Shown one piece after another: positions 32,178-57,632 of a DNA stretch of 64,000 bases. Numbering within the stretch: position 1 is the stretch's first letter; every line of letters begins with the position of its first letter. Origin of the DNA: PVC group bacterium (GTDB lineage: Bacteria; Omnitrophota; Gorgyraeia; B26-G9); assembly GCA_024231215.1 (NCBI GenBank), contig JAAEQR010000195.1, positions 78,755-142,754 on the forward strand, written 5' to 3'. The position numbers and the translations under genes are program-made. The notes under the pieces are model-generated. The model saw nothing but the letters and a program-made list of their open reading frames with translations, was not told the origin of the DNA and did not search any database.

Positions 32178-32196
32178 TTTATGAGATGGGGTGTAT

Positions 32197-33444
32197 ATGA
32201 AGGGTTCAGATTGTTTGGTTTTAATTCTCGGTGGAGGCAGGGGATCACGGCTTTATCCGTTAACATTAGAGAGAAGTAAACCAGCGATTGGTTTTGCCGG
32301 CAAGTATCGTATTATTGATATTCCGATTTCCAATTCAATTAATTCCGGGTTTAACAAAATTTTTATTTTGACTCAGTTTCTTGCGGCAAGCCTGCATGCG
32401 CATATCTTACATACTTATCGCTTTGATAATTTTTCTAAAGGATTTATAGAGATTCTTTCGGCGGAACAAAGTCATAAGAGTTTTGAATGGTTCCAGGGCA
32501 CAGCAGATGCTGTGCGTCGTGTAATTCGGCATATTCGTAATTTGCCGCAGAAATATATTTTGATTCTTTCCGGAGACCATTTGTATAAAATGGATTATAG
32601 ACAGCTTATGAATTCGCATGTCAAGAATAATGCCGAGCTGAGCATAGCTTCTATTTTTGTCGATGAACGAGAAGCAACACGCATGGGGATTATAGATTGC
32701 AATTCTTCAGGACAAATCACCAGCCTCATTGAAAAGCCTAAAAATCCAAAAAGATTAAAAATAAAATCCAGGCTTAAATCCCAGGAAGGGGATCAATATC
32801 TTGCGTCGATGGGTGTATATTTATTTAATAAAGATGTGCTTATTGATATTCTTTCAGGTACAACCGTAGAAGATTTTGGTAAGCATATACTTCCGATGAT
32901 GATAAAGAAGAAAAGAAAAGTATACAACTATAATTTTAAAGGATATTGGCGTGATATTGGGACTGTGGATAGTTATTATGATGCAAGCTTGGACTTAATT
33001 GGTAAAAAGCCGCAATTTGATTTGTTTGATGAAAACTGGCCGCTTTTTTCCCGTCCGCGGTTTTTACCACCAAGCCGTATTGTGGATTCAAATATTATAA
33101 ATGCGTTAATATCTGATGGATGCCGCTTGGATAAGGTGCATATTGAAAATTCACTTATTGGCTTGCGTAGTAAAATAAAAGAAAATACAAGAATAAAAGA
33201 TTCGATTATCATTGGTAACGATTATTATCAGAGATATTTTGGGGATAAACTGGTAAAGCCATATATTGGCAAGGGAGTGCTTATCGAGCGGGCGATTGTG
33301 GATAAAAATGTTTCAATTGGAGATTTCTGCCAGATTACGGATAAAAGCAATAGCCCTGATTGCGATAAAGATATTTATTATGTGCGGGATGGAATTACGA
33401 TAATCAGAAGAGGCGTAACTCTCCCGGCCCATACAATAATATAA
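32197..33444 (+). CDS. glgC: glucose-1-phosphate adenylyltransferase
   Basis: LILGGGRGSRLYPLT nucleotidyltransferase motif. C-terminal left-handed beta-helix region. Start taken at the ATG after RBS GAGATGGGG. Confidence 0.85.
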   Translation: MKGSDCLVLILGGGRGSRLYPLTLERSKPAIGFAGKYRIIDIPISNSINSGFNKIFILTQFLAASLHAHILHTYRFDNFSKGFIEILSAEQSHKSFEWFQGTADAVRRVIRHIRNLPQKYILILSGDHLYKMDYRQLMNSHVKNNAELSIASIFVDEREATRMGIIDCNSSGQITSLIEKPKNPKRLKIKSRLKSQEGDQYLASMGVYLFNKDVLIDILSGTTVEDFGKHILPMMIKKKRKVYNYNFKGYWRDIGTVDSYYDASLDLIGKKPQFDLFDENWPLFSRPRFLPPSRIVDSNIINALISDGCRLDKVHIENSLIGLRSKIKENTRIKDSIIIGNDYYQRYFGDKLVKPYIGKGVLIERAIVDKNVSIGDFCQITDKSNSPDCDKDIYYVRDGITIIRRGVTLPAHTII

Positions 33445-39461: not shown

Positions 39462-39539
39462 CGGGGCGTGGCTCAGCTTGGCTAGAGCGCCTGGTTTGGG
39501 ACCAGGAAGTCACAGGTTCAAATCCTGTCGCCCCGACCA
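39462..39539 (+). tRNA. tRNA-Pro (TGG)
   Basis: Cloverleaf read by eye. Acceptor CGGGGCG/CGCCCCG. Anticodon loop tTTGGGa. Encoded CCA. Confidence 0.85.
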
Positions 39540-39596
39540 TTTAGTTTATAGTCAATATTAATAGAAACATTTTACTAGTGACTATAAACTAATCAT

Positions 39597-39673
<77 letters not shown>

Positions 39674-39749
39674 TCTATGAAGTTACAAGTTACAGATTAT
39701 GAGTGACAAGTTGTAATTTGTCATTTGTAATTCGTAACTATTTTAATAT

Positions 39750-39827
39750 GGTGGGTGTAGCTCAGTTGGTTAGAGCACATGATTGTGGTTCATGATGTCG
39801 TGGGTTCGAATCCCATCATCCACCCCA
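39750..39827 (+). tRNA. tRNA-His (GTG) with G-1
   Basis: Extra 5' G. Anticodon loop tTGTGGt. Discriminator C. Encoded CCA. Confidence 0.85.
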
Positions 39828-41967: not shown

Positions 41968-44844
41968 ATGGGGCGTAAGAATTATAGTACGGTAATTCTG
42001 GCAACAATATTGTTTTTATTTTACGTTGTTCCTATCATATGTGCCCAGCCGGAAACATCTCTAAAAGAATTGTCTGCTGATATTCCCACCGAAGTATACC
42101 AAAAAATAAGAAACTTATATTCAAAAGATGCCAATGTGCGGGCTGAAGCAGCTTATAACCTTGGGCAAATGCAGGATGCGGCTGCGGCTGCAGTTCCATT
42201 ACTGGTGGAAATGTTGGGCGATACTACCGGCGTAAACTGGAAGTCTACACCCCAGGGGATTGTGTCCGGGGTTAATGTGGTTGGGAATGAAGCTACGCAG
42301 GCTTTGATTAAAATCGGAAGTGTTGCGGCTGTGCCGCTAATAGAGGTTATTCATAAAGGCAGAAAGATTGAAAAACGTAATGCAGTCCGAGCTTTAGGGC
42401 GGATCGGGGATCTTCAGACCGTAGAATTGCTTTCGGCGTTATTGAAAGAAGAGAAGGCTTTAGTGCGCAGATATGCGGTTGTAGCTATGGGAGAAGCTAA
42501 AAGCTTTTATGCTGTGCCGGCATTACTTTCTGCGCTAAGGAGCGATGATGATGTTACAGTCCGGCGTTATGCGGCGTTAGCTTTAGGTGGAATAAAAGAC
42601 AGTCGGTCTGGTTTTGGTTTGATCGAGGCGTTAAAAGACGATAGTGCTGTGGTCCGTACACAGGCAGCCTGGGCTTTGGGAGAGTTGAGAAATAAACAGG
42701 CGGCAAAGATGCTGCTTCCATTTTTAAATGATAAAGATCTGAATATGCGTATAGAAACAGTTCACGCTTTAGGTAAAATTGCGGATAAAATTGCGTTGCA
42801 GCCGTTGATGGGATTATTGAAAGACCAAAATAAAGTGATTCAGCAAGCTGCGGCAAAATCTTTAGAAATGATCAAGCATCCTCAGACTGTTGAAGTTTTA
42901 ATCAAGGCACTTAAGAGTGATGATTTAAAAATGCGCAGAGAGGCTGCTTGGATACTAGGTGGTGTAAATGATCAGAGAGCAATAAAACCATTACTGAGTG
43001 TATTTAATGATAAAGATTCTAGGGTAAGAAGCTATGCGGCACGGGCATTGGGCAAGATGAAAGCTAAGCAGGCAATAGATCCATTAATCAAACTTTTAAA
43101 GGATAATGATTCGTTAGTTAGTAATTATGCCTCCTGGGCTTTAAGCAAGATGAACCCAGCTGATACAATGACGCCGTTAAAAGCTTTGTTGAAAGATGCT
43201 CAGCCTTTAGTTCGTAAAATGGCAGCTATGGTTTTGGGGAATATTGGAAGTAAACAGGCGATGGCACCCTTGCTTTTGGCAATGGATGATCAGGCGTGGT
43301 TTGTGCGCTACTATGCAGCTTGGGCTTTGGGTAGAATAAAGGAGCCCGGAGCTGTTCCTAAGCTTATTCGGGCTCTTAAAGATGAAAATTTTACAGTAAG
43401 GCAATATGCGGCTTGGGCTTTGGGTAATATAGGAGATCCAAAAGCTTTGGAAGCTTTAGGTGCGGTGATGGATGATCAGTATTGGACGGTACGTTATAGT
43501 GCAGCCAGAGCATTAGGGGTATTAAAGGATGCGCGTGCTTTAAACGATTTGTTTAAAGTCTTAAAAGATGATCATTGGCTTGTGCGTTATCATTCTGTAA
43601 ATGCGTTGGGGCAAATAGGAGATAAAAAGGCATTGCCTTATTTGAGAGAGGTTTCTAAGGATAAGAATACTTCTGTGCGTTATCAAGTGGCGCGATCTTT
43701 GGGTTGGATTGGAAATCCGCGTGCCTTGAATACGCTTACCGGTCTTTTAAAAGATAGTAAAAGGTTGGTTCGTTATCATGCTGCCGAAGCATTAGGAGAT
43801 ATAGGAGATAAAAAAGCATTAAATTCTTTGTTGCAGGCTTCTAAAGATAGTCATCCTGCGGTGCGATATAAGGCGATATGGGCTTTAGGACAATTCAAAG
43901 ATATGCGTGCGGAAAAAGCGGTCATTAATGCTTTGAAGGATAAGCATTGGGCAGTACGTTATCACGCGGCAAAAGTTTTAAGTGACTCAAACAGTGCGTT
44001 TGCGGCAAAGGGATTGATTATTGCCTTAAAAGATAAAGATGCCTCAGTTAGAGAAACCGCTGCTTTGGCTTTGGTTACGGTTAAAAGCGATGAGACATCC
44101 ACGTTTTTGGCTGATGCCTTAGAAGACAAAGATCCATTGGTGAGAAGATATATTGGGGAGATAATAGATGAAAGAAAGGGGCCGCCGATATCTAAGCCTT
44201 CTGATATTAATGCTGATATACAGATAAGTATAGATAATTCTATGGAGGATGTTATTGAGGAAATTCAGGGGAAAGAATCATTTGGATCATTGATTATTGC
44301 TTTAAAAGATGAAAATTCTTCTGTGCGTAGACACGCTGCATCGGAATTGGCCCAATTAAAGGATAACCGATCAATAAAACCACTGATTGAGGCATTAAAA
44401 GACACTGATCCCGGAGTACGCTATCAGGTTGCCTTGGCTTTAGGAGAGATAAAGTCGCTGGAGTCTGTGCCGGGGCTGATTATTGCTTTGAAAGATAAAG
44501 ATACGTCTGTGCGTTACCAAGCTGCCTTGGCCTTATCCGAACTAAAGGATCCTCGTTCTGCGTTACCCTTAACCAAAGCGCTTAAAGATAACCATTGGTC
44601 TGTACGTTATCAGGCGGCCTTAGCTTTAGGAGAGATTAAAGATATTGCTTCTATTGACGGCCTGATTGATGTTTTATCTGACGACGATACGTTTGTAAGG
44701 GAGAATGCTGCTTCTGCTCTGGAGACTATAGTCGGTATAACCTTTCATCAGGATCAGGCTAAGTGGCGTGCCTGGTGGGAAGAATATAAAGAGAATATGC
44801 CTGAGAAAGAGAAACAAGCTTTAAACCCGTCCTCTGAAAACTAG
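41968..44844 (+). CDS. large exported HEAT-repeat (PBS-lyase-like) protein with more than 25 repeats
   Basis: 958 aa with a signal peptide. Reiterated ...VRxxAAxALGxIGD... units. Confidence 0.8.
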   Translation: MGRKNYSTVILATILFLFYVVPIICAQPETSLKELSADIPTEVYQKIRNLYSKDANVRAEAAYNLGQMQDAAAAAVPLLVEMLGDTTGVNWKSTPQGIVSGVNVVGNEATQALIKIGSVAAVPLIEVIHKGRKIEKRNAVRALGRIGDLQTVELLSALLKEEKALVRRYAVVAMGEAKSFYAVPALLSALRSDDDVTVRRYAALALGGIKDSRSGFGLIEALKDDSAVVRTQAAWALGELRNKQAAKMLLPFLNDKDLNMRIETVHALGKIADKIALQPLMGLLKDQNKVIQQAAAKSLEMIKHPQTVEVLIKALKSDDLKMRREAAWILGGVNDQRAIKPLLSVFNDKDSRVRSYAARALGKMKAKQAIDPLIKLLKDNDSLVSNYASWALSKMNPADTMTPLKALLKDAQPLVRKMAAMVLGNIGSKQAMAPLLLAMDDQAWFVRYYAAWALGRIKEPGAVPKLIRALKDENFTVRQYAAWALGNIGDPKALEALGAVMDDQYWTVRYSAARALGVLKDARALNDLFKVLKDDHWLVRYHSVNALGQIGDKKALPYLREVSKDKNTSVRYQVARSLGWIGNPRALNTLTGLLKDSKRLVRYHAAEALGDIGDKKALNSLLQASKDSHPAVRYKAIWALGQFKDMRAEKAVINALKDKHWAVRYHAAKVLSDSNSAFAAKGLIIALKDKDASVRETAALALVTVKSDETSTFLADALEDKDPLVRRYIGEIIDERKGPPISKPSDINADIQISIDNSMEDVIEEIQGKESFGSLIIALKDENSSVRRHAASELAQLKDNRSIKPLIEALKDTDPGVRYQVALALGEIKSLESVPGLIIALKDKDTSVRYQAALALSELKDPRSALPLTKALKDNHWSVRYQAALALGEIKDIASIDGLIDVLSDDDTFVRENAASALETIVGITFHQDQAKWRAWWEEYKENMPEKEKQALNPSSEN

Positions 44845-44966
44845 TCTGAATATTTCCCTAGATTCGATTTGTTTATTATTGCTTTTTATTGTATAATAAT
44901 AGACTATACCATGTAATATCCGTGGGTTATAGGTGTTGATTGGGAATATCTATCAGAAGGGATTGT

Positions 44967-46574
44967 ATGCCTAAATATTCGTTTGACGCAGTAATTTTCG
45001 ATATGGACGGGGTTATAACCAAAACAGCACTGGTACATGCTCAGGCTTGGAAGCTGGTGTTTGATGAGTATTTGCGTTTGCGGGAAGAACGGGATAATGA
45101 GCCTTTCCGGGAATTTACGCATGAGGTTGATTATCTTAATTATGTAGATGGAAAGCCCAGGCTTGAAGGGATACAGAGTTTTTTAGAATCCCGGGGCATT
45201 AATCTTCCGATAGGAACTCCCGAAGATGCAGCAGATGCTGAGACAGTATACGCTATCGGCAATAAAAAAAATACAAAGTTTAGAGATGTTTTAAATACTG
45301 ATGGAGTAGAAGTTTATCCTTCCACTAAAGCGTTGATCGAAGTTTTGAAAAAAGATGGTATTAAGATTGGAGTTGTTTCTTCTTCTAAAAACTGCGAATT
45401 TGTCTTAGAAGCAGCTGATATGCTTAAATATTTTGATACCAGAGTCGATGGAATGATAGCTGTGGAGCAGAATATTGTGGGTAAGCCCGAAGGCGATATG
45501 TTTATTAAGGCGGCATTAAATTTAGGCACAACTGCGGACAAAAGTGTAGTTGTTGAAGATGCTATATCCGGGGTACAATCAGGACGTAACGGGGGTTTTG
45601 GCCTGGTTATTGGTGTGGCCAGAAGTGATAATGTAGAGGAATTAAATAAAAACGGGGCTGATGTCACGGTTACGGATTTAGAGTATATAAGTGTCGACTG
45701 GATGGAAAAATGGTTTTCCAAAACTTTACCTGCGTTATTTGATGCTTGGGATAATAAAGATAAGATGGTTCAGGGATATGCCGATGTACAAATTGATAAC
45801 ATCGTGATTAACCCGAGTTATTTACGTGATCCGAAAGAGGTTTTATTAGCAGGTAAAAAGCCGGTATTTTTCCTGGATTACGATGGAACTTTGACTCCGA
45901 TTGTAGAACGTCCGGAGCTTGCGGTGATCTCACAAGCGATGAAAGATACTGTGACCCAGCTATCTAAAAAACATACGACTGCAGTTGTCAGTGGTAGGAT
46001 GCGGGAAGATGTAGAGAATTTGGTGGGTATTGAAGGTTTGTTTTATGCCGGTAGTCATGGATTTGATATTTTAGGCGGAGGGGTCTCTATGGTTCAGCCC
46101 GAGGCGCAAGAGACAATACCTTTAGTTACGCAAATAATTGAAAGATTGAAAAAAGAGGTTGGAACAATCGAAGGGGTTATTATTGAAGAGAAGAAATTCA
46201 GCATGGCAGTACATTATCGTTTAGTTGCGGATGAGCATTTAGAGCTGATTGAAGCAGCTGTGCTTGCAGTTGTCGAGGCACATCCTCAGTTACGGTTAAT
46301 GCGCGGTAAAAAAGTATATGAAATACTTCCGGCTATTGATTGGAATAAGGGGAAAGCTGTACGCTGGATTATGAAGGCTATGAATATTTCCTGGGAGGAC
46401 TCAACGGTTGTTTATATCGGAGATGATACTACAGATGAATATGCGTTTCGTGTTGTACGAGGTCGGGGCGTAGGTATTCTGGTTGCAGATGGCCCAAGGC
46501 CTTCGGCGGCTCATTTTCAGTTATCCTCACCGGACCAGACAAGAAAGTTATTTGAAATGCTGATTAAAGAATAA
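44967..46574 (+). CDS. fusion of a beta-phosphoglucomutase-like HAD domain and a trehalose-6-phosphate phosphatase-like (OtsB) domain
   Basis: N-terminal FDAVIFDMDGVITKT motif (beta-PGM class). C-terminal VFFLDYDGTLTPIVERPE ... SGR motif (T6PP class). Start taken at the ATG after RBS GAAGGGA. Confidence 0.75.
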   Translation: MPKYSFDAVIFDMDGVITKTALVHAQAWKLVFDEYLRLREERDNEPFREFTHEVDYLNYVDGKPRLEGIQSFLESRGINLPIGTPEDAADAETVYAIGNKKNTKFRDVLNTDGVEVYPSTKALIEVLKKDGIKIGVVSSSKNCEFVLEAADMLKYFDTRVDGMIAVEQNIVGKPEGDMFIKAALNLGTTADKSVVVEDAISGVQSGRNGGFGLVIGVARSDNVEELNKNGADVTVTDLEYISVDWMEKWFSKTLPALFDAWDNKDKMVQGYADVQIDNIVINPSYLRDPKEVLLAGKKPVFFLDYDGTLTPIVERPELAVISQAMKDTVTQLSKKHTTAVVSGRMREDVENLVGIEGLFYAGSHGFDILGGGVSMVQPEAQETIPLVTQIIERLKKEVGTIEGVIIEEKKFSMAVHYRLVADEHLELIEAAVLAVVEAHPQLRLMRGKKVYEILPAIDWNKGKAVRWIMKAMNISWEDSTVVYIGDDTTDEYAFRVVRGRGVGILVADGPRPSAAHFQLSSPDQTRKLFEMLIKE

Positions 46575-46584
46575 AGGATGTTTT

Positions 46585-49005
46585 ATGAAAAAAGATTTGT
46601 TATGGAAACTTGTTTATAATCGGTTTTATCCGGACGAAGAGGGATTAAGAGAGTCGCTCTGTACGCTTGGAAACGGTTATATGGGCAGCCGGGGAGTGGC
46701 ACCAGAAGTGATTGCTTCTGAAATTCATTATCCGGCTACATACATTGCCGGAATTTATAACCGGACACCGACAGAAATTGCCGGCAGAACAATTTATAAT
46801 GAAGACTTGGTGAATTGTCCGAACTGGACACACCTGGTATTCCGGATTGGAAACGGGAAATGGTTTCGTCCTTTTTCGGCAAAGTTACTTTCGTATCGCC
46901 AGGAACTTGATATGCATAAAGGAATTTTGAGTAGGACTATCCGGTTTCAGACTACGCGTGGACAGAAAACAAAAGTCGAAGAAACAAGGCTTGTGCATAT
47001 GGCTAATCCGCATTTAGCGGCGATCAGGTATATAATTACTCCGGAAAACTATAACGATGTGATTACGGTCAGAACAATGCTGGAAGGATCTGTGCTTAAT
47101 CTAAACGTAGAGCGTTATCGTGAATTAAACACACATCATTTAAAAGCGCATAATGTAGGAAGATTTTCCAAGAACGGTATTTATCTGTCGGCTAAGACCA
47201 GCCAGTCCAATATAGAAATTTGTATGGCGGAAAAAGTAAGGGTTTATATAGCTGATAAAGAGAAGAGACCTGCAGTTGAGGTTTTGCGCAGACATCGAAA
47301 TCAGAATATCGGTCAGGAGATAAGAATTGGTATTAGAAAAGGACAACCTTTGCGTATCGAAAAGATCGTTGGTATTTATACGTCCCGGGATGAAGGATGT
47401 CAGAGTGCGAAGAATGCGGCGATAAAAGTTGCAAAGAGTGCTTCGCAGTTTAAGACTTTATTTGATTCTCATCAAAAAGCATGGGCAAGGCTTTGGGAAA
47501 AATTTGATATAAAGATTGAAGGGCATAAATTTTCACAGAGGGCAATAAGATTGCATATGTTTCATTTGCTTCAGACGGCTTCTGCACATAATGTAAAGAT
47601 AGATGCTGGTTTTCCGGCGCGTGGTTTGCATGGAGAGGCGTATCGCGGACATATATTCTGGGATGAAGTTTTTGCCATGAAATTTTTCTCTTTTAACAGC
47701 TCGGAAGTTGCTGAAGCATTGCTTAGGTATCGCTATCGCCGTTTACAAAAAGCGCGCGATTATGCTAAAGCAAATGGTTATAAAGGTGCGATGTTTCCCT
47801 GGCAAAGCGGATCATCCGGCAGAGAAGAAACACAGGAAGTACATCTTAATCCGATGTCCGGGAAATGGGGTCCGGATTACAGTCGGTTACAAAGGCATGT
47901 ATCATTTTCAATTGTTTATAATGTTTGGCGGCACTGGAGAATTACCGGTGATTTAGATTTTATGGTGCGTTTTGGCGCGGAACTACTTTTATCGATTGCC
48001 CAGTTTGGAGCCAGCCTGGTTCATTTTGACGAAAAGGACGGACGTTATCATACGGAAAAAGTTATGGGGCCTGATGAGTTTCACGAAAAACTGCCGCATA
48101 GCAAACAGCCGGGATTAAAAGATAATGCTTATACCAATGTTATGATTGTGTGGATGTTGTTAAAGGCAGAAGAAGTGCTGGCTATTCTTCCGGATAAAGA
48201 TAAGCAGAAATTGATGAAGAAGTTGAAACTTACTTCTGATGAAACTTCGCGTTGGGAAGATATTACCCGGAAGATGAAAATTATTATGGATGACCGGGGA
48301 ATTATCAGCCAGTTTGACGGATATTTTAAGTTGAAAGAGTTGGACTGGTCTAAATATCGTAAGAAATACAGTGATATTCATCGCTTGGATCGGATATTGA
48401 AAGCTGAAGGCAGAACTCCGGATGCTTACAAAGTATCGAAGCAGGCGGATGTACTGATGATTTTTTATTTATTACGGTTAGGGGAGGTTCAGAGGATATT
48501 TAAACGATTAGGTTATAATTGTGATAAAACACTCTTAAGAAAGAATTACGATTATTATATTAAACGGACTTCGCATGGTTCAACTTTAAGTAAAGTAGTG
48601 CATTGTTTTATTGCGCAATGCCTTGATCGTGAAAAAGAAGTTTGGCGTTGGTTTTTAGAGGTTTTGGAATCGGATATCCAGGATACCCAGGGTGGAACTA
48701 CGCCGGAAGGGATACATACAGGGGTTATGGGCGGTTCCATAGACGCGGTTATTCGCGGCTTTGCCGGTATCCAGATCCTGGATGACCGAATTAAAATTAC
48801 TCCGTGGTTTCCGAAAAATTTGCGAAGAATAAAGTTTAAATTGTGTTATCGTAAACGCTGGATTGATTTTGAAATCACCAAAAAGGAAATAAAGATTCAT
48901 ATTATGGGCAGACGTAAAGTTGTGAATATGCTGCCGATGGAGATAAATTCAAAACTACAGCTTCTTCCTGAGGGCCGGCCGGTTAAGTTTTCTATAAATA
49001 ACTAA
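46585..49005 (+). CDS. GH65-family glycoside phosphorylase (trehalose, kojibiose or Tre6P phosphorylase class)
   Basis: 806 aa. N-terminal LCTLGNGYMGSRG. Catalytic region GLHGEAYRGHIFWDE. Confidence 0.8.
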   Translation: MKKDLLWKLVYNRFYPDEEGLRESLCTLGNGYMGSRGVAPEVIASEIHYPATYIAGIYNRTPTEIAGRTIYNEDLVNCPNWTHLVFRIGNGKWFRPFSAKLLSYRQELDMHKGILSRTIRFQTTRGQKTKVEETRLVHMANPHLAAIRYIITPENYNDVITVRTMLEGSVLNLNVERYRELNTHHLKAHNVGRFSKNGIYLSAKTSQSNIEICMAEKVRVYIADKEKRPAVEVLRRHRNQNIGQEIRIGIRKGQPLRIEKIVGIYTSRDEGCQSAKNAAIKVAKSASQFKTLFDSHQKAWARLWEKFDIKIEGHKFSQRAIRLHMFHLLQTASAHNVKIDAGFPARGLHGEAYRGHIFWDEVFAMKFFSFNSSEVAEALLRYRYRRLQKARDYAKANGYKGAMFPWQSGSSGREETQEVHLNPMSGKWGPDYSRLQRHVSFSIVYNVWRHWRITGDLDFMVRFGAELLLSIAQFGASLVHFDEKDGRYHTEKVMGPDEFHEKLPHSKQPGLKDNAYTNVMIVWMLLKAEEVLAILPDKDKQKLMKKLKLTSDETSRWEDITRKMKIIMDDRGIISQFDGYFKLKELDWSKYRKKYSDIHRLDRILKAEGRTPDAYKVSKQADVLMIFYLLRLGEVQRIFKRLGYNCDKTLLRKNYDYYIKRTSHGSTLSKVVHCFIAQCLDREKEVWRWFLEVLESDIQDTQGGTTPEGIHTGVMGGSIDAVIRGFAGIQILDDRIKITPWFPKNLRRIKFKLCYRKRWIDFEITKKEIKIHIMGRRKVVNMLPMEINSKLQLLPEGRPVKFSINN

Positions 49006-49043: not shown

Positions 49044-50876
49044 ATGAAAATCGGGGCACATTATATTGGTGACCGTATCTGTAAATTTATAGTTTGGGCG
49101 CCTTTCGCCAATGAAGTCACATTAAAAATTGTCTTGCCGCAAGAATTATTTATTCCTATGAATAAAGATGCATTGGGGTATTGGAGTGTGATTGTAGAAG
49201 AGATTAATCCCGGGACCCAGTATCTTTATAGTCTTGACCAGTCTCAAGAAAAACCCGACCCCGCTTCTTTTTATCAGCCGGATGGAGTGCATGGGCCTTC
49301 CCAAATTATTGATCAAAATAGTTTTTTATGGAAAGATACCGGCTGGAAAGATATCCCTCTAAAAGAAATGATTTTGTATGAATTGCATATAGGTACGTTT
49401 ACTCCGGAGGGGACTTTTAATAGTGCGATTGATAGAGTAGAGCAGTTAGCGCAGTTGGGCATAACAGCTATAGAAATTATGCCTGTAGCGCAATTCCCCG
49501 GGGCTAGGAATTGGGGGTATGACGGGGTATATCCATTTAGTGTTCAGAATTCTTATGGAGGTCCGAAGGGGTTAAAGGAATTTGTGAATGCTTGCCATTT
49601 GAACGGAATAGCTGTAATTCTGGATGTAGTTTATAACCATCTTGGCCCGGAAGGTAATTACTTTTCTGAATTTGGTCCGTATTTTACAAATAAATATCAT
49701 ACTCCTTGGGGCAATGCGCTTAATTTTGATGATGCTTATAGCTATGGGGTGAGAAATTATTTTATTGAAAATGTATTGAGCTGGTTTGATAATTATCATA
49801 TAGACGGGTTACGTCTGGATGCAGTTCACGGAATTTATGATTTAAGTGGAAAACATATTTTAGAAGAATTCGCAGAGGCAGTAGAAGATGCGTCTATGCG
49901 TCAGGGTAGAAAATTATGTTTAATTGCAGAGAGCGAGTTAAATGACACCCGTTTGATAAAATCAAAAGATGTTGGGGGCTATGGAATTGACGCGCAGTGG
50001 TGCGATGATTTTCACCATGCCTTGCATGCTTTACTGACAGAGGAAAAACAGGGCTATTATATTGATTATGGAAAAACAGAACATATCATGACTGCTTTAA
50101 AAGAGGGGTTTGTTTACTCCGGTCAATATTCTGTTTTTCGTAAAAAACATTACGGCAATTCATCGAAAGATATTTCCGGGAATCAGTTTGTGGTATGTGC
50201 GCAGAATCATGATCAGATCGGTAATCGCAGGCAAGGGGAACGCCTGAGCCGGCTGATTTCTTTTGAAGGATTGAAACTAAGCGCGGCAACGGTGATGTTC
50301 TCCCCGTATGTTCCGTTGCTTTTTATGGGGGAGGAATATGCTGAATCTGCGCCGTTTTTATATTTTGTGAGTCATTCCGATGATGATTTGATTGCGTCAG
50401 TGCGTAAAGGCAGAAAAGAAGAGTTCTCTGCTTTTAAGTGGAAAGGAGAGGCTTCTGATCCACAGCAGGAAGAGACTTTTTTAGATTCCAAACTTAACTG
50501 GGGTAAGAGGAATGAAGGAGATGGGAATATCCTTTTGCATTGGTATAAAGAATTGATTGCTTTAAGAACGCGTCTTCCCGCGTTTATTTACGGAGGGAAA
50601 GATACAATGGAAGTCTCTACGGACAAGACGGCTAAAATTGTTTTTGTCCGAAGATGGCATGTCCGGCATGAACTTTCGTTGATTATGAATTTTAGTCAGG
50701 AAGAAGTAAGTTTTAACCCGCAAATTTCCGAAGGTAAATGGAAAAAGCTTATTGACTCATCGGACCTCAAGTGGATGGGTAAGGGTGCGTTATTGCCGGA
50801 TAATATTATGAACAGTCAGAAGGTTAAGATGCCTGCTTGGGGGTTTGCGTTATACGAAAAAGACGTTTTACGATAG
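49044..50876 (+). CDS. treZ: malto-oligosyltrehalose trehalohydrolase
   Basis: 610 aa. N-terminal CBM48-like segment plus a GH13 catalytic core (GYDGV, VILDVVYNHLGPEGN). Confidence 0.8.
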   Translation: MKIGAHYIGDRICKFIVWAPFANEVTLKIVLPQELFIPMNKDALGYWSVIVEEINPGTQYLYSLDQSQEKPDPASFYQPDGVHGPSQIIDQNSFLWKDTGWKDIPLKEMILYELHIGTFTPEGTFNSAIDRVEQLAQLGITAIEIMPVAQFPGARNWGYDGVYPFSVQNSYGGPKGLKEFVNACHLNGIAVILDVVYNHLGPEGNYFSEFGPYFTNKYHTPWGNALNFDDAYSYGVRNYFIENVLSWFDNYHIDGLRLDAVHGIYDLSGKHILEEFAEAVEDASMRQGRKLCLIAESELNDTRLIKSKDVGGYGIDAQWCDDFHHALHALLTEEKQGYYIDYGKTEHIMTALKEGFVYSGQYSVFRKKHYGNSSKDISGNQFVVCAQNHDQIGNRRQGERLSRLISFEGLKLSAATVMFSPYVPLLFMGEEYAESAPFLYFVSHSDDDLIASVRKGRKEEFSAFKWKGEASDPQQEETFLDSKLNWGKRNEGDGNILLHWYKELIALRTRLPAFIYGGKDTMEVSTDKTAKIVFVRRWHVRHELSLIMNFSQEEVSFNPQISEGKWKKLIDSSDLKWMGKGALLPDNIMNSQKVKMPAWGFALYEKDVLR

Positions 50877-50946
50877 CGATACTGTTGCAAAACGCACATC
50901 TGCACATTTTAAAACAGTATCATAATGAATGAGGGGAATTAAAAAT

Positions 50947-53370
50947 ATGAACAAATATATTTGCGTACATGGACATTTCTATCAGCCGCCGCGGGAGAAC
51001 CCGTGGTTAGAGGAGGTTGAACTTCAGGATTCAGCTTATCCTTTTCATGACTGGAATAAGCGTATTACCATTGAATGCTATGCTCCAAACGCGGCATCGC
51101 GTATTCTAGATAATGAAGATAAAATTGTCGATATTGTAAATAACTACGCGCAGATTAGTTTTAATTTCGGTCCAACTTTGCTTTCCTGGATGCAAAGGCA
51201 TATGAATGATACGTATAATATGATTTTAGAAGCAGATAAATTAAGTCTTAAGAATTTCTCCGGGCATGGGTCTGCTTTAGCTCAGGTATATAATCACATG
51301 ATTATGCCGTTGTCTAATTTAAAGGATAAGCAAACGCAGGTGATTTGGGGGATAAAGGATTTTGTAGCTAGATTTAAACGTAAGCCCGAAGGTATGTGGT
51401 TGGCTGAAACAGCTGTGGATACAGAAACTTTAGAAGTTCTGGCTGAACATGATATTAAATTTACGATATTATCTCCGTATCAGGCGCAGAATTTAAGAAA
51501 AATAGGAGATGAAAAATGGATAGATGCAAGTGCGGGAAAAATTGATCCGAAGATGCCGTATCTTTGCAATCTTCCTTCCGGGAAAAAAATTACCCTTTTC
51601 TTCTATGACGGCCCCGTATCTCAAGATATTGCTTTTGGCGGGCTTTTAGATAAGGGGGAAAATCTTGCTAACCGGTTGATCGGAACATTTGGTTCTCAAG
51701 AAGAGCCGCAGTTGGTGCATATTGCTACAGATGGAGAGACTTACGGGCATCATCATTCCTATGGGGAAATGGCTTTATCTTACGGATATAATCATATTAA
51801 AGAAAATAAATCAGCTAATATTACAATTTACGGGGAGTATCTGGAAAAATTTCCACCGACGCATGAAGTACAGATCGCAGAAAACTCATCTTGGAGTTGT
51901 ATACATGGCGTGGAACGCTGGCGTAATGATTGCGGATGTAAGATTGGTTCTGGTCATAACTGGAATCAAGCCTGGCGTGCACCTTTGCGTAAAGCTATGG
52001 ATTGGCTGCGGGATGCGCTTATTGAAGTATATGAGAAAGAAGGGGCGAAGTATTTAAAAGATGTGTGGCAGGCGCGGGATGGGTATATTGAGGTTATCTT
52101 AAATCGCGAAGATAAGAGTGTGAAGGATTTTCTTCAAAAGCACGCTAATGCAGAATTGCCCGAAGAAGATAAAATCCAGGCACTAAAGCTTTTGGAAATG
52201 CAGAGACATGCAATGCTTATGTATACAAGCTGCGGCTGGTTTTTCGATGAGATATCCGGGATAGAGACAGTGCAGATTATGCAGTACGCAGCGCGGGCTA
52301 TACAGATGGCTAAAGAAGCCGGGGGTATTGATTTAGAACCTGGGTATCTTAAGATTTTAAAAAAAGCACACAGCAATATAAAAGAGTCTGAAAACGGAGC
52401 TAAAATATATGAAAAGGCAATTAAGCAGACAGTGCTTGATTTGCACAGAGTTGGTGCGCATTTCGCCGTATCGTCATTGTTTAACGATTATCCCAAGACA
52501 ACCAAGGTGTATTGTTATTCTGTAGAAAACAGAGTTAATGAGCGCGCCGAAGCCGGAAGACAAAAGATTGTTATTGGCCGGGCGCTGGTAAAATCGGATA
52601 TTACTTACGAAGAAGATTTGGTTAGCTTTGCGGCTTTGCATATGGGGGATCATAATCTTTTTGGCGGAGTAAGAGATTATATGGGAGAAGAGCCGTTTGA
52701 TAAAATGCAGGAAGAGATTAAAGGAGCTTTTCAGCGCAGTGATATCTCACAGATAATTCATCTGATAGATCAGCATTTTGGGAGTCACAATTATTCTTTA
52801 TGGCATTTATTTAAAGATGAACAGAGAAAAGTTTTAGATGAGATACTTAATTCCACTCTCGAAGAAATAGAAAACTCATTCAGGCAGATTAACGAACATC
52901 ATTATCCGGTAATGCAGGTTATCAAAGAAATAGATATGCCTTTGCCAAAGATATTATCTACAACATTAGAATTCATGTTTAATGCGGATATCAGAAAGAT
53001 ACTTGATAGTGATGAGATTGATCTTTCCAGGCTGCAAAATTTAGTTGAAGAAGTAAAACGCTGGTCGTTTGTCTTAGATACTACAACTATAAAGTATGTA
53101 GCAAGTAAAAGAATAACTATTTTAATGAAACAATTAGATAAGAATCCCGGCGATTTGAAATTAATTACTACTTTGGGAGCGCTATTTAAATGTTTGAGCG
53201 GACTTAACCTGGACTTAAGTTTATGGCGAGCCCAGAATATATATTTTGATATTCACGCTCAGTTGTATGCGGAATTAGATAAGAAATCCAGAGAGAAAGA
53301 TCGTCATGCCAGAAAATGGATCAGACAGTTTGATCGGCTGGGCAAGTATCTTAGGGTAAGGAGCAGGTAG
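50947..53370 (+). CDS. GH57-family glycoside hydrolase with a long C-terminal extension
   Basis: HGHFYQPPRE and WLAETA catalytic-region motifs. Start taken at MNKYICVHGHF after RBS GAGGGG. Confidence 0.75.
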   Translation: MNKYICVHGHFYQPPRENPWLEEVELQDSAYPFHDWNKRITIECYAPNAASRILDNEDKIVDIVNNYAQISFNFGPTLLSWMQRHMNDTYNMILEADKLSLKNFSGHGSALAQVYNHMIMPLSNLKDKQTQVIWGIKDFVARFKRKPEGMWLAETAVDTETLEVLAEHDIKFTILSPYQAQNLRKIGDEKWIDASAGKIDPKMPYLCNLPSGKKITLFFYDGPVSQDIAFGGLLDKGENLANRLIGTFGSQEEPQLVHIATDGETYGHHHSYGEMALSYGYNHIKENKSANITIYGEYLEKFPPTHEVQIAENSSWSCIHGVERWRNDCGCKIGSGHNWNQAWRAPLRKAMDWLRDALIEVYEKEGAKYLKDVWQARDGYIEVILNREDKSVKDFLQKHANAELPEEDKIQALKLLEMQRHAMLMYTSCGWFFDEISGIETVQIMQYAARAIQMAKEAGGIDLEPGYLKILKKAHSNIKESENGAKIYEKAIKQTVLDLHRVGAHFAVSSLFNDYPKTTKVYCYSVENRVNERAEAGRQKIVIGRALVKSDITYEEDLVSFAALHMGDHNLFGGVRDYMGEEPFDKMQEEIKGAFQRSDISQIIHLIDQHFGSHNYSLWHLFKDEQRKVLDEILNSTLEEIENSFRQINEHHYPVMQVIKEIDMPLPKILSTTLEFMFNADIRKILDSDEIDLSRLQNLVEEVKRWSFVLDTTTIKYVASKRITILMKQLDKNPGDLKLITTLGALFKCLSGLNLDLSLWRAQNIYFDIHAQLYAELDKKSREKDRHARKWIRQFDRLGKYLRVRSR

Positions 53371-53376
53371 GGAAAA

Positions 53377-56127
53377 ATGAAAACGCCACTCGCTACATAT
53401 AGAATTCAATTTAATCCTTCTTTTGGCTTTCAGCAGGCAAAGGAAGTTCTGGATTATTTAAAAGCTTTGGGCATATCTGATATTTATGCGTCTCCCATAT
53501 TTAAGGCACGCAAGGGTAGCGGACATGGATATGATATAGTTGATTCAAATCAGATAAATCCTGAGCTGGGAACAGAGGCTGATTTTGATGCCTTGAGCAA
53601 TTGCGTAACTGAAAAACATATGGGCTGGCTGCAGGATATTGTACCCAATCACATGGCTTTTGATGCGGGAAATAAAATGCTTATGGATGTTCTGGAGATG
53701 GGACGATGTTCTGAGTATTATGAATTCTTTGATATTAACTGGAATCATCCTTATGAAAGTATGCGCGGTAGATTGCTGGCACCGTTTCTGGGCAGATTTT
53801 ACGCGGAGTGTTTAGAAAGCGGCGAAATAGAACTCACCTATAATAAGGAAGGCCTGAGTGTTAATTACTACTCTTTACGTTTTCCTTTAAAAATAGAATC
53901 ATATTCTAGCGTATTAGGTTATCGTATTGATAAACTAGCTAATGGGTCGGACAAAGCGGACGATCTTATTGGTATATTTTCCAGCTTAGGTAAAAAAGCC
54001 GAGAACCGTTATAGTCAACTTGCTCAGGCGAAAAAAGACTTTTGGGAGTTATATATACAAGATACGGGGATTAAAGAATTTATAGATGAAAATGTCCGAA
54101 CATTTAACGGGAGTCCCGGTGATCCTGAGAGTTTTAATTTATTGGATGAGTTACTAGGGCATCAGTGGTTTCGTTTAGCGTTCTGGAAGGTGGCGGCTGA
54201 AGAAATAAACTATCGCAGATTTTTCACGATTAATGAACTTATTTGTTTGAAAATTGATGACCAGGATGTATTAAACCAGACACATGCTTTGATTATTAAA
54301 CTGGTAGAGGAAGGAAAGATTACCGGATTAAGGATAGACCATATCGATGGATTACAAGATCCCCGCCAATATTTAGAGAGATTAAAAGGGGTGGCGAAGG
54401 ATACTTATACGGTTGTAGAAAAGATTCTGATCGATAAAGAGCAGCTGTCTTTGGACTGGCCGGCGCAGGGAACCACGGGATATGATTTTTTAAATCACGC
54501 TAACGGCTTATTTTGCATGAAGAAAAACCAGCGTTCTTTTAACCGGATCTATACAAAATTTACAGGCAGAGGTACATCCTATGAAGGTCTGGCTTGTAAT
54601 AAAAAACGTTTGATTATTAGTAAACATATGGCCGGTAATATCGACAACCTAGCTGTTTTATTGAAACAAATATCCAGCTATAGCCGGCATGGCAGTGATA
54701 TAACATTATATGCTTTAAGACGAGCATTAGTAGAGGTGCTGGCGCATTTTCCTGTGTACCGAACTTATATAAGTCATGATGATTTTACGGATATAGATGC
54801 TGACTATATATTGTCTGCGGTAAAAAAAGCAAAACATATAAGCCCAGGACTTTTTTATGAACTTGATTTTATTGAAAAATTTCTTTTGTTAAAGCCGGAA
54901 CACTATATTCGTGATGAAGAAAGAGAAAAAGTAATCGAGTTTGTGATGCGGTTTCAACAGGTAAGCGGGCCATTGATGGCTAAAGGGGTCGAAGACACTG
55001 TATTTTATGTGTATAATAGATTTTTGTCATTAAATGAAGTGGGTGGAAGTCCTGATAAGTTTGGAATTTTTGTAAAAGATTTTCATAATTTTAATAAAAC
55101 AAGGCAAGCAAATCATCCGTGTTCTTTGAATGCCCTGTCTACGCATGATACTAAACGCGGTGAAGATTTTCGCGCCAGGCTTAACGTGTTTTCTGAAATT
55201 CCCGAGCTTTGGGAGCAGAGTATAAAGCGATGGAACCGGAGTAATAAAAAAATCAAGACAAAACTAAATGCTGTTATTGCTCCGGATAAAAACGATGAGT
55301 ATTTTTTGTATCAGACACTGGCCGGAGCATTTCCTTTTAATGTTGAAGATAGGGATGCGTTTATGGGTCGGCTGAAAGAATACCTGATTAAAGCGGTAAG
55401 AGAAGCAAAGGTCTATACCGCCTGGTTAAAGCCGGATACCGATTATGAAAACGCTTATATAAAGTTTGCCGAAGAGATAATGAACGGTGCGTTTCTAAAT
55501 GAGTTCCTGCCGTTTCAGAAAAAGATTGCGTATTACGGAATATTTAATTCCCTGGTGCAGACACTGATTAAAATGACTGCTCCGGGTGTACCTGATTTCT
55601 ATCAAGGCACAGAGCTTTGGGATTTAAGCCTGGTTGATCCGGACAATCGCAGGCCGGTTGATTTTGTTCAAAGAGAAAAGATGCTTCGAGATATAATGCA
55701 TGGGAAGCAGAATAATCTCAAAGAATTGATCTTGGACCTCTGGAAAAATAAAGAAGACGGCAGAGTAAAGATGTTTTTAATCTATCAGATTTTACAGCAA
55801 AGAAAGGCATTGCCGGAGTTGTTTTTAAAGGGTGATTATGCGGCATTGGATACCGGCGGTAAGTATAAAGATCATGTGGTTGCCTTTGCCAGAACCTATA
55901 AGGATGATACGGCGTTGATTATTGTACCGCGGTTTTTGACAACTTTAGTTGAAGAAGGGGAAAATCCTTTTGGAGAAACTGTCTGGAGTGATACGTATGT
56001 AGCTGTCCCGGATGGGGTGGATAAATGGACAGATGCGATAACTGATCAAGTGATAGAGGGGAAAAGGACATTAGCAGTAAGTGATATTTTTAAGAGTTTC
56101 CCAGGGGCAATGCTAATTAATAAATAA
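53377..56127 (+). CDS. treY: malto-oligosyltrehalose synthase
   Basis: 916 aa, GH13-like. N-terminal TYRIQFNPSFGFQQAKEVLDYLKALGISDIYASPIFKA. Confidence 0.85.
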   Translation: MKTPLATYRIQFNPSFGFQQAKEVLDYLKALGISDIYASPIFKARKGSGHGYDIVDSNQINPELGTEADFDALSNCVTEKHMGWLQDIVPNHMAFDAGNKMLMDVLEMGRCSEYYEFFDINWNHPYESMRGRLLAPFLGRFYAECLESGEIELTYNKEGLSVNYYSLRFPLKIESYSSVLGYRIDKLANGSDKADDLIGIFSSLGKKAENRYSQLAQAKKDFWELYIQDTGIKEFIDENVRTFNGSPGDPESFNLLDELLGHQWFRLAFWKVAAEEINYRRFFTINELICLKIDDQDVLNQTHALIIKLVEEGKITGLRIDHIDGLQDPRQYLERLKGVAKDTYTVVEKILIDKEQLSLDWPAQGTTGYDFLNHANGLFCMKKNQRSFNRIYTKFTGRGTSYEGLACNKKRLIISKHMAGNIDNLAVLLKQISSYSRHGSDITLYALRRALVEVLAHFPVYRTYISHDDFTDIDADYILSAVKKAKHISPGLFYELDFIEKFLLLKPEHYIRDEEREKVIEFVMRFQQVSGPLMAKGVEDTVFYVYNRFLSLNEVGGSPDKFGIFVKDFHNFNKTRQANHPCSLNALSTHDTKRGEDFRARLNVFSEIPELWEQSIKRWNRSNKKIKTKLNAVIAPDKNDEYFLYQTLAGAFPFNVEDRDAFMGRLKEYLIKAVREAKVYTAWLKPDTDYENAYIKFAEEIMNGAFLNEFLPFQKKIAYYGIFNSLVQTLIKMTAPGVPDFYQGTELWDLSLVDPDNRRPVDFVQREKMLRDIMHGKQNNLKELILDLWKNKEDGRVKMFLIYQILQQRKALPELFLKGDYAALDTGGKYKDHVVAFARTYKDDTALIIVPRFLTTLVEEGENPFGETVWSDTYVAVPDGVDKWTDAITDQVIEGKRTLAVSDIFKSFPGAMLINK

Positions 56128-56141
56128 TGGAGAGCTAAGCA

Positions 56142-57632
56142 ATGAAAAAACGAAGTAGCGGAATATTAATGCATATTACATCTTTACCTTCACCGTTTGG
56201 AATTGGTGATATGGGAGATGGTGCTTATAGATTTGTGGATTTTCTGGAGCAGTCAAAACAAAAATCATGGCAGGTACTTCCGTTTAACCCGACAAGCGGG
56301 ATTAACGGACATTCACCGTATAGCAGTATGTCTGCTTTTGGGGCCAATATATTATTGATCAGCCCGGAATTGATGCTAAAAGACGGACTGCTTAGCGAAA
56401 AAGATGTTGATACCTGTCTGGATTCAAACGGTGTAGTTGATTATCCAAAAGTTTTAGAATTCAAAAACAGATTATTTAATATCGCGTTTAAAAAATTTCA
56501 AACTATTGAAGATAAACAGGGGTATACGGATTTTTGCGCGGAAAATGCATATTGGCTGGAAGATTTTGCGATGTTTATTGCTTTTAAAGAGTATTTCCAG
56601 GATAAACTTTGGAGCGAATGGCCGCAGGATATCCGGGACAGAAATCAGCAGGCAGTGATCAATTTAAAAGCGCAGATGAACGGCAAGATTGAAAAAGAGA
56701 AATTTCTGCAGTATTTATTTTTTAAACAGTGGTTTGCGCTAAAAAAATATGCGAACCAAAAAGGCGTAGAGATAATCGGTGATATTCCGATCTATGTTAC
56801 CTATGATAGTGTGGATGTATGGCAGGATCCTTCAGTATTTAAGCTGAACGCGGAAAAAGAACTGAAATACTTAGCAGGGGTGCCGCCGGATTATTTTAGT
56901 AAGACCGGACAATTATGGGGTAATCCTGTCTATGATTGGGATGCGTTGGCTAAAGATAAATACGCCTGGTGGATAAAAAGAATAGAACACAATCTTAAAT
57001 TGTTTGATTGGGTAAGGATTGATCATTTCCGAGGGTTTGTTGATTATTGGCAGGTACCGCTTGGAGAGAAGACAGCGATTGGCGGGGAATGGCAAAAAGC
57101 ACCGGCTTTTGATTTTTTTGAGACTATATTACAGAGATTTCCTGATGCGCCGATTATTGCCGAGGACCTGGGGATTATTACCGATGAAGTCAGGGAAGCA
57201 ATTAAACATTTTGGTTTCCCAGGGATGAAGATATTGATATTTGCGTTTTACGAAGATAAAAAAGACCATCCGTACTTGCCGGATAATTATATAGACAATT
57301 GTGTGGCTTATACCGGAACACATGATAATAATACAGTCAAAGGCTGGTTTGAAAATGAAACACAAGAAGCAGATAAAAAACGTTTGTTTAAATGTCTGGG
57401 CAGGGAAGTGTCCGTAGATGAGCTGCCTTGGGCAATGATTAAATTATTGATGGAATCTAAAGCGAATATGGCTCTTTTTCCGATGCAGGATATTCTGGGT
57501 TTAAAGCAGGAAGACCGCATGAATTTACCCGGGACTTTAGACGGAAACTGGCAATGGCGGCTTAAGCCTGAGCAGTTAACTCCGCAAATCACTGCGCAAT
57601 TAGCGGAAATCACGCTATCTACCAGCAGATAA
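56142..57632 (+). CDS. malQ: 4-alpha-glucanotransferase (GH77)
   Basis: GILMHITSLPSPFGIGDMG N-terminus and a GH77 core. RBS GGAGAG. Confidence 0.85.
   Translation: MKKRSSGILMHITSLPSPFGIGDMGDGAYRFVDFLEQSKQKSWQVLPFNPTSGINGHSPYSSMSAFGANILLISPELMLKDGLLSEKDVDTCLDSNGVVDYPKVLEFKNRLFNIAFKKFQTIEDKQGYTDFCAENAYWLEDFAMFIAFKEYFQDKLWSEWPQDIRDRNQQAVINLKAQMNGKIEKEKFLQYLFFKQWFALKKYANQKGVEIIGDIPIYVTYDSVDVWQDPSVFKLNAEKELKYLAGVPPDYFSKTGQLWGNPVYDWDALAKDKYAWWIKRIEHNLKLFDWVRIDHFRGFVDYWQVPLGEKTAIGGEWQKAPAFDFFETILQRFPDAPIIAEDLGIITDEVREAIKHFGFPGMKILIFAFYEDKKDHPYLPDNYIDNCVAYTGTHDNNTVKGWFENETQEADKKRLFKCLGREVSVDELPWAMIKLLMESKANMALFPMQDILGLKQEDRMNLPGTLDGNWQWRLKPEQLTPQITAQLAEITLSTSR

Follow-up and report, generated by a model that had tools for sequence, protein, structure and literature searches.

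Can a bacterium assemble trehalose from hexose phosphate without spending a nucleotide sugar? The question is raised by two adjacent genes, here called A and B, of a PVC group bacterium (GTDB lineage Omnitrophota; Gorgyraeia; B26-G9), which lie in a 64-kb window (the whole stretch of DNA analysed here, 64,000 nucleotides, positions 78,755 to 142,754 of the forward strand of contig JAAEQR010000195.1, assembly GCA_024231215.1; coordinates below are window positions). Gene A is predicted to encode a β-phosphoglucomutase (β-PGM) fused to a trehalose-6-phosphate (Tre6P) phosphatase (T6PP), and gene B a family GH65 enzyme predicted to be a Tre6P phosphorylase (TrePP). An earlier note on this DNA had read the pair as a possible route to or from trehalose that needs no OtsA; both open reading frames (ORFs) lie where it placed them, and the two peptides that it quoted, FDAVIFDMDGVITKT and FFLDYDGTLTP, are present in the translation of gene A. 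Its span, 44967-49005, fits the gene pair but ends too early for the cluster to which the pair belongs, missing the TreZ, GH57, TreY and MalQ genes that extend it to 57632. Its interpretation is supported at the level of sequence, which documents what the three enzymes are, that they are tightly linked and that this linkage is conserved; the direction of flux and the physiological role are what we infer. On balance, we lean towards genes A and B forming a three-activity Tre6P module that runs in the synthetic direction.

Domains and active sites of gene A

Gene A (44967-46574, plus strand) encodes 535 amino acids. As called mechanically, its ORF opens at a TTG (44940); the ATG at 44967 is preceded by a Shine-Dalgarno-like GAAGGGA, and 535-residue homologues line up from the Met that it encodes at 100% coverage, so that this ATG is the likely start. 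The identical deposited protein is named ‘MAG: trehalose-phosphatase [PVC group bacterium]’ (MAG, metagenome-assembled genome), and its closest relatives (57-74% identical) are nearly all from Candidatus Omnitrophota. Residues 7-210 match Pfam families PF00702/PF13419 and residues 302-521 match PF02358 (Trehalose_PPase; 176 bits against a cut-off of 27). E-values of the domain matches of genes A and B range from 1e-50 to 1e-119, and chance is therefore excluded. The NCBIfam equivalog for T6PP, TIGR00685, was exceeded about 2.5-fold (174.6 bits, cut-off 68.05), the trehalose-phosphatase domain taking up residues 296-534, while the β-PGM family TIGR02009 was barely passed (156.1 bits, cut-off 153.35).

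The full set of functional residues of Lactococcus lactis β-PGM was recovered in the N-terminal domain by HMMER alignment: D8, D10, T16 and H20 correspond to gene A D12, D14, T20 and H24; G46 and R49 of the cap to G62 and R65; S114, S116, K117 and N118 to S138, S140, K141 and N142; and K145, E169 and D170 to K173, E197 and D198. All are invariant or nearly so across an alignment of 18 diverse homologues (A1). In β-PGM, D8 and D10 act as nucleophile and acid/base, T16 and H20 form the hinge and E169 and D170 ligate Mg2+, with R49, S116, K117 and N118 making up the distal phosphate site that distinguishes mutases. The top solved relative of the domain is 8h5s (206 bits, E = 6e-60), by its fold-search description Mycobacterium tuberculosis Rv3400, whose longer type of cap gene A shares. 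Rv3400 is a genetically confirmed β-PGM; its deletion raises β-glucose-1-phosphate (β-G1P) 30-fold (2025 preprint). By these residues, the N-terminal HAD domain is of the β-PGM class rather than a generic phosphatase.

The two HAD domains are joined by a structured linker in which W249, F250, L257, W261, N282 and Y285 are invariant or near-invariant in A1 and along which the AlphaFold predicted local distance difference test score (pLDDT) runs at ~84-96 (whole model: pLDDT 87.5, predicted template modelling score 0.84). In the C-terminal domain the T6PP motifs DYDGT (304-308), SGR (342-344) and GDDxTD (485-490) are invariant in A1, and K448/K461 are present. The earlier note had singled out the DxD aspartates as residues whose loss would speak against a phosphatase; this nucleophile/acid pair is kept (D304, D306). 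The top solved relative is M. tuberculosis OtsB2 (5gvx; 156 bits for that domain). The motifs and model scores identify the domain as a T6PP, and the claimed fusion of a β-PGM-class HAD to a complete T6PP-like domain stands on the residue set, the Rv3400 relationship and the TIGR00685 match together.

Gene B and its predicted specificity

Gene B begins 10 nt past the stop codon of gene A, with AAGGA ahead of its ATG, and encodes 806 amino acids. All three GH65 domains score above their cut-offs (PF03636, 245 bits; PF03632, 398 bits; PF03633, 39 bits). The phosphate site that sets phosphorylases apart from hydrolases (K/R330, S631, S632 and H675 in CsKP numbering; PMC11442529) is intact as R346, S666, T667 and H711, with E498 as catalytic acid, in agreement with the earlier assignment of this ORF as a GH65 phosphorylase. 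In gene B, Thr takes the place of CsKP Ser632, which also holds for PDB entry 9lb6 and for almost all relatives of the TrePP type.

Six correlated positions (CsKP 64, 392, 394, 402, 416 and 585) separate all GH65 specificities, the motif DQGQDE predicting a TrePP (De Beul et al. 2021, PMC8537180). Gene B carries D74, Q407, G409, Q417, D431 and E608 at these positions, an exact match to the confirmed TrePPs; the positions were mapped twice, on a printed alignment to CsKP (3wiq) and by a script on a MAFFT alignment. CaGP of Caldithrix abyssi makes Tre6P from β-G1P and glucose-6-phosphate (G6P) and is inactive on glucose, which bore out the prediction made from its motif (PMC8537180); gene B was compared with CaGP through the published fingerprint. 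Among solved structures the best match to gene B is 9lb6, a Tre6P-acting GH65 chain (500 bits), and scores then descend through kojibiose phosphorylase (392 bits) and 4ktp (264 bits) to maltose phosphorylase (214 bits). We take 4ktp to be a GH65 chain of glucosylglycerol phosphorylase. Identities as maltose, kojibiose, nigerose or trehalose phosphorylase were rejected on their differing fingerprints and this order of scores. We predict that gene B encodes a TrePP (GH65 subgroup 22, EC 2.4.1.216), the activity on which the earlier proposal had been made conditional.

The entries 9lb6/9lb7 are deposited as ‘Trehalose-6-phosphate hydrolase’ despite their GH65 chain. The aligned sequence of 9lb6, read by eye, has the phosphate-site residues of a phosphorylase and DQGQDE; the entries are either mislabelled or a genuine Tre6P hydrolase inside the TrePP subgroup. 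A literature search found no paper describing PDB 8h5s or 9lb6.

Related loci

A scan of one genome per species, ranked by similarity, gave the best 80 related loci, in which all ORFs were translated and searched with the window proteins; the taxonomy of MAGs in this sample may be unreliable, that of ‘archaeal’ bins especially. Four arrangements were found. In the first, as in the window, β-PGM::T6PP is followed directly by GH65; it occurs in Omnitrophota, Planctomycetota, Chlamydiae, Binatia, Bacteroidota, Gemmatimonadota, several families of Desulfobacterota, Gamma- and Alphaproteobacteria, Synergistota, Thermotogae, Coriobacteriia, Legionella saoudiensis and MAGs binned as archaea. In the second, three separate genes keep the same order (L058, L060, L064, L066, L071, L075). 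The third is a single three-domain protein of ~1300 amino acids, found in Desulfohalobiaceae (L017, L018), Nocardia (L027) and Mycolicibacterium moriokaense (L056), and the fourth, chiefly from Bacteroidota, is a β-PGM::GH65 fusion without T6PP. GH65 adjoins the fusion in every locus that has all three domains. All 56 long GH65 neighbours carry DQGQDE (39) or a one-position variant of it, with the phosphate site intact wherever the sequence is complete. By Rosetta-stone logic, the fusions of β-PGM with T6PP and of all three domains point to a shared pathway.

An exhaustive search of 1.8 billion cluster representatives returned 2056 clusters at E < 1e-30; the top 150 are mostly two-domain proteins of 500-550 amino acids, with several of ~1300, and the β-PGM::T6PP fusion was found in >100 clusters at 50% identity. 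The arrangement of β-PGM::T6PP with GH65 is therefore common, ancient and essentially unstudied. Database names for the fusion proteins are just ‘trehalose-phosphatase’ or ‘alpha,alpha-trehalase’.

One Omnitrophota MAG has a second, more distant β-PGM and GH65 pair just upstream of its T6PP-type module (L002:5692-8684, plus strand). Its GH65 scores 354, compared with 1017, and probably has another specificity.

Mycobacterial triple fusions, OtsB1 and OtsB2

According to a 2024 review, the function of mycobacterial OtsB1 (Rv2006, 1327 amino acids) is unknown, a ΔotsB1 mutant has no obvious phenotype and OtsB2 alone has T6PP activity. The earlier note had likened the domains of genes A and B to those fused in OtsB1. 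Triple fusions β-PGM::T6PP::GH65 with the same domain order do occur in Mycolicibacterium, Rhodococcus and Nocardia, so the likeness holds for these fused relatives in Mycobacteriaceae and Nocardia, through which alone Rv2006 was approached here; in the window the domains are split over two genes. We compared 106 triple fusions of at least 1250 amino acids: 103 related to the M. moriokaense protein, one from Nocardia and two from Desulfohalobiaceae. A homologue search with the M. moriokaense fusion returned other Mycobacteriaceae only. Clusters of 1327 residues were tried as candidates for Rv2006 and rejected, being proteins of M. poriferae and M. parafortuitum.

A TrePP-type fingerprint and an intact phosphate site are present in all 106 fusions (60 read SQGQDE, the others are one-residue variants), and no fewer than 98 keep the T6PP motifs intact. 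The full β-PGM residue set, with Lys or Arg allowed at K117, is retained by 78, with Thr for Ser as the sole departure in a further three; the set has clearly decayed in a minority, for example in M. poriferae and M. parafortuitum. Three proteins of these two species (P0295, P0296 and P0299; 1327-1328 amino acids) keep T6PP and TrePP motifs intact with a degenerate β-PGM, reading FDVEG for FDxDG, ASRCDC for SSSKNC and IDD for VED. These data make the function of OtsB1 testable with G6P as substrate, without establishing that function.

OtsB2 aligns to gene A in sequence across both domains (gene A residues 177-256 to OtsB2 87-165, plus the T6PP domain, gene A 294-532), and the AlphaFold model of gene A matches 5gvx over 425 columns (E = 7e-31). 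The N-terminal domain of OtsB2 is without β-PGM motifs and aligns, in sequence and in structure, to the C-terminal half of the β-PGM domain of gene A. OtsB2 therefore looks like a decayed fusion, which suggests that this essential enzyme descends from a β-PGM::T6PP protein whose mutase domain has degenerated.

The gene cluster in the window

Genes A and B head a cluster of six genes on the same strand, A, B, TreZ, GH57/DUF3536, TreY and MalQ (Table 1), in which the downstream genes are separated by gaps of 6-52 nt. An AT-rich spacer of 99 nt follows MalQ, and GlgC lies 12 kb upstream of the cluster (32191-33444). With TreZ, TreY and MalQ downstream and GlgC upstream, the setting is therefore one of glycogen-to-trehalose conversion. 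Judging from gene spacing alone, the cluster is probably co-transcribed; promoter and terminator scans gave no more sites than shuffled sequence, and Rfam found no element in the leader and just three tRNAs in the window. A probe search of the six-frame ORFs of the window found no OtsA (GT20); the probe was validated by the 21 OtsA ORFs that it recovered in related loci, three of them confirmed by NCBIfam.

Table 1. The trehalose gene cluster of the window, with domain boundaries in gene A
Feature	Coordinates	Strand	Basis
AT-rich intergenic leader with GAAGGGA ahead of the ATG at 44967; transcription unit probably starts here	44845..44966	+	sequence
Gene A, β-PGM (HAD-IA) domain, residues ~7-245	44985..45701	+	PF00702/PF13419, TIGR02009, full residue set, Rv3400 relative
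Gene A, structured linker between the HAD domains, residues ~246-295	45702..45851	+	conserved columns, AlphaFold pLDDT
Gene A, T6PP (HAD-IIB) domain, residues 296-535 and stop codon	45852..46574	+	TIGR00685, PF02358, invariant motifs
Gene B, GH65 inverting phosphorylase, predicted TrePP	46585..49005	+	three GH65 Pfam domains, fingerprint, phosphate site
TreZ, malto-oligosyltrehalose trehalohydrolase	49044..50876	+	TIGR02402, 739.8 vs cut-off 538.8
GH57 + DUF3536 protein, α-glucan-active enzyme	50929..53370	+	PF12055, 404 bits; PF03065, 69.5 bits
TreY, malto-oligosyltrehalose synthase	53377..56127	+	TIGR02401, 929.7 vs cut-off 498.65
MalQ, GH77 4-α-glucanotransferase, final gene of the cluster	56142..57632	+	PF02446, 595 bits

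The GH57 + DUF3536 protein (813 amino acids) stands between TreZ and TreY, the usual spot of the debranching enzyme GlgX/TreX in TreYZ clusters, and this position is kept in the closest relative (L001). It matched no NCBIfam equivalog.

Neighbours of loci with and without T6PP

Neighbours were counted for 34 related loci with T6PP (T6PP-type) and 26 without it (T6PP-less). Neighbours of T6PP-type loci are biosynthetic or osmotic (TreY/TreZ, TreT, OtsA, MscS): TreT, TreZ and MscS each adjoin 3 of the 34 and none of the 26 T6PP-less loci. No kinase, MFS transporter, trehalase or phosphotransferase system (PTS) was seen near T6PP-type loci, whereas 15 of the 26 T6PP-less loci have a P-loop kinase and 6 an MFS transporter as neighbour. 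OtsA adjoins both kinds (6/34 T6PP-type; 9/26 T6PP-less, as a divergent bifunctional OtsA-OtsB). When the count is restricted to loci whose sequence extends 1 kb or more past GH65, the kinase comes right after GH65 in 14 of 20 T6PP-less and 0 of 27 T6PP-type loci (Fisher p = 1e-7, which overstates independence, as the contrast is phylogenetically clustered, mostly in Bacteroidota).

The kinase has ~220 amino acids and belongs to the PRK/uridine-kinase family (e.g., L028:13212-13874, plus strand; also right after GH65 in L029, L030, L032, L033, L036, L039-L042, L044, L047, L050 and L055). It matches PF00485 at 39.7 bits and reaches 52.7 bits with the udk model, far below the cut-off of 220; it is therefore not a uridine kinase. 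In these loci, where it follows a β-PGM::TrePP fusion, MFS transporters and divergent OtsA-OtsB genes of the bifunctional kind are also frequent. We regard it as a candidate cytoplasmic trehalose (or glucose) kinase; the literature searched describes no trehalose kinase gene. Kinase and phosphatase as alternative partners would fit catabolic and anabolic versions of the module, respectively.

A proposed route from hexose phosphate to trehalose

In the route that we propose, the β-PGM domain would turn G6P into β-G1P, and the GH65 enzyme, acting by reverse phosphorolysis, would join β-G1P to G6P, giving Tre6P and inorganic phosphate (Pi). The T6PP domain, fused to β-PGM, would then hydrolyse Tre6P irreversibly to trehalose and Pi, so that in sum two G6P would yield trehalose and two Pi without UDP- or ADP-glucose. 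TreZ, the GH57 protein, TreY and MalQ would make trehalose from α-1,4-glucan, and the whole operon would thus obtain trehalose, a compatible solute, from both hexose phosphate and stored glucan at zero nucleotide cost. Such synthesis would suit an energy-limited anaerobe.

The synthetic direction is supported by the composition of gene A, since β-PGM and T6PP are consecutive in one pathway only if the phosphorylase makes Tre6P; were the module to run catabolically, T6PP would use up the substrate of the phosphorylase, which disfavours that direction. The biosynthetic or osmotic neighbours of T6PP-type loci point the same way. Carvalho et al. reportedly ran L. lactis trePP and pgmB with a Propionibacterium otsB synthetically in the living cell in 2011. 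The use of trePP, pgmB and a foreign otsB to engineer trehalose synthesis in L. lactis appears as a listed entry in PMC6942593. A 2026 cell-free study attributes an equilibrium constant of ~760 to TrePP-catalysed Tre6P synthesis and gives ~760, with -16.4 kJ/mol, for the whole cascade too, which leaves the reaction meant ambiguous (PMC13121652).

Several points weigh on the other side. Gene A does not reach the β-PGM equivalog TIGR01990 (105.4 bits, cut-off 189.4). The equilibrium of β-PGM lies far towards G6P, because of which little β-G1P would be available, and the high Pi of the cell promotes phosphorolysis. The phylogenetic clustering of the kinase/phosphatase contrast counts here as well. 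OtsA or bifunctional OtsA-OtsB genes adjoin the module in 15 of the 60 loci counted, and the module is therefore not always a substitute for OtsA; T6PP could be the partner of OtsA, with TrePP and β-PGM as a drain for Tre6P. The claimed independence from OtsA thus fits the window, where none was found, but does not extend to those T6PP-type loci that OtsA adjoins. Recombinant M. tuberculosis OtsB1 reportedly lacked T6PP activity, and M. smegmatis deprived of OtsA, TreS and TreY is reported to need added trehalose; both speak against a route that could robustly stand alone in mycobacteria.

Alternative explanations

The alternative that survives best, which we nonetheless consider unlikely, is that the module serves Tre6P homeostasis or catabolism: GH65 would work phosphorolytically and β-PGM would return β-G1P to G6P as in L. 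lactis, T6PP would serve an OtsA encoded elsewhere, and the module would set the level of Tre6P or recycle trehalose carbon. Tre6P accumulation is toxic, which speaks for such a role, as do the OtsA genes beside a quarter of the related loci. It is also the sole physiological role documented for TrePP and β-PGM in reviews, and growth on trehalose requires Rv3400. It is harder to reconcile with the loci themselves, since neither the window nor the T6PP-type loci revealed a source of Tre6P for catabolism (PTS not seen, kinase in 0/27) and the neighbours in the window are all synthetic enzymes. With T6PP fused to β-PGM, and in the triple fusions also to TrePP, one polypeptide would carry two sinks that compete for Tre6P, and draining OtsA-made Tre6P to G6P would be a futile cycle costing nucleotide sugar.

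A shift in specificity, which appears improbable, would have GH65 and the phosphatase act on another α-glucoside phosphate, with a hexose-6-phosphate or polyol-phosphate acceptor, and so make a solute other than trehalose, or would make the β-PGM-like domain a plain sugar phosphatase. Such a shift could account for the missed TIGR01990 and the narrow pass of TIGR02009, and for the ‘hydrolase’ label of 9lb6; the passage of PMC11442529 that cites Taguchi 2017 has L. lactis TrePP accepting some other acceptors. It sits poorly with six specificity positions identical to those of confirmed TrePPs, a T6PP equivalog comfortably passed with a proven T6PP as nearest solved relative, and the retention of every distal phosphate residue that marks mutases (R49, S116, K117, N118); the adjoining genes are trehalose enzymes. 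That two unrelated carbohydrate genes merely happen to lie beside a TreYZ operon is effectively refuted because the same-order pairing recurs in dozens of loci of unrelated phyla, also as covalent fusions, even if co-transcription is deduced from spacing and the promoter and terminator scans equalled shuffled sequence.

Relation to known systems

The synthetic three-activity module favoured here has close counterparts. TrePP and PgmB of L. lactis, reportedly described as a trehalose-utilisation pathway by Andersson et al. in 2001, belong to the same two families and share the DQGQDE fingerprint and the β-PGM catalytic residues; there, however, Tre6P comes from the PTS and the pair is catabolic and works without T6PP, whereas in the window T6PP is fused to β-PGM and the pair has biosynthetic genes around it, with neither a PTS nor a kinase close by. 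The engineered L. lactis producer combines exactly the three activities proposed for the window, but it is artificial and draws its genes from two organisms, while the window holds a natural, fused and widely conserved set. The triple fusions related to mycobacterial OtsB1 have the same three-domain repertoire and order, the difference being that GH65 is a separate gene in the window; among solved structures, the two halves of gene A find their closest relatives in Rv3400 and OtsB2. The OtsA/OtsB pathway shares the intermediate Tre6P and the final step by an HAD-IIB T6PP; its GT20 synthase uses UDP- or ADP-glucose, where the window route would use a phosphorylase and β-G1P.

CaGP of Caldithrix abyssi and the enzyme of Ca. 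Kuenenia stuttgartiensis are likewise non-Firmicute members of GH65 subgroup 22 with the same fingerprint, known from activity in vitro only and with no physiological pathway proposed. Kuenenia belongs to the PVC superphylum. A Calditrichota locus in our sample (L055) has a β-PGM::GH65 fusion followed by the kinase, not T6PP. A structural match, Acinetobacter baumannii MtlD, in which mannitol-1-phosphate dehydrogenase is fused to an HAD phosphatase, offers a precedent for a final phosphatase joined to an earlier enzyme of its pathway, though by analogy only, as chemistry and partner domain are different.

The enzyme families, the catabolic pair of L. lactis and the engineered synthetic trio are thus already known. 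Textbooks and recent reviews (2024-2025) list five routes of trehalose synthesis, OtsAB, TreYZ, TreS, TreP and TreT, and treat Tre6P phosphorylase as degradative only. In the literature searched we found no recognition of the natural fused module as a route of trehalose synthesis, and the same absence holds for a 2024 GH65 review (PMC11442529), a 2024 α-glucan review, a 2025 Tre6P review and a 2025 survey of trehalose breakdown. We offer, with slightly less than even confidence, the wider proposal that β-PGM::T6PP with TrePP is a natural sixth route, free of nucleotide sugars and spread over >12 bacterial phyla and some archaeal MAGs, of which OtsB1 would be the single-polypeptide form, OtsB2 a decayed descendant and the kinase variant a PTS-independent catabolic reverse.

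The conserved linkage of phosphorylase and phosphatase suggests a way to a major stress protectant that is free of ATP and other nucleoside triphosphates, of relevance to energy-starved anaerobes and saline habitats. It gives mycobacterial OtsB1 a concrete testable reaction and supplies ready-made fused enzymes for cell-free production of trehalose or Tre6P. It would also put right the naming of thousands of genes that currently carry no more than the label ‘trehalose-phosphatase’ or ‘alpha,alpha-trehalase’.

Other features of the window

Immediately upstream of the trehalose cluster lies a gene for a 958-residue protein (41968-44844, plus strand) made up almost wholly of HEAT/PBS-lyase-type repeats, whose position is kept in a 74%-identical relative (L001:2820-5678); a second HEAT-repeat gene lies at 4648-5610 on the minus strand. 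Two full-length genes for the large subunit of carbamoyl-phosphate synthase stand in tandem (17577-20804 and 20819-24049, plus strand) right after carA (16478-17584) and are followed by genes for a class-II amidotransferase and a DUF1846 protein. The three tRNA genes are clustered at 39462-39824 (plus strand), upstream of FabK/NMO-like, PilZ and nitroreductase genes.

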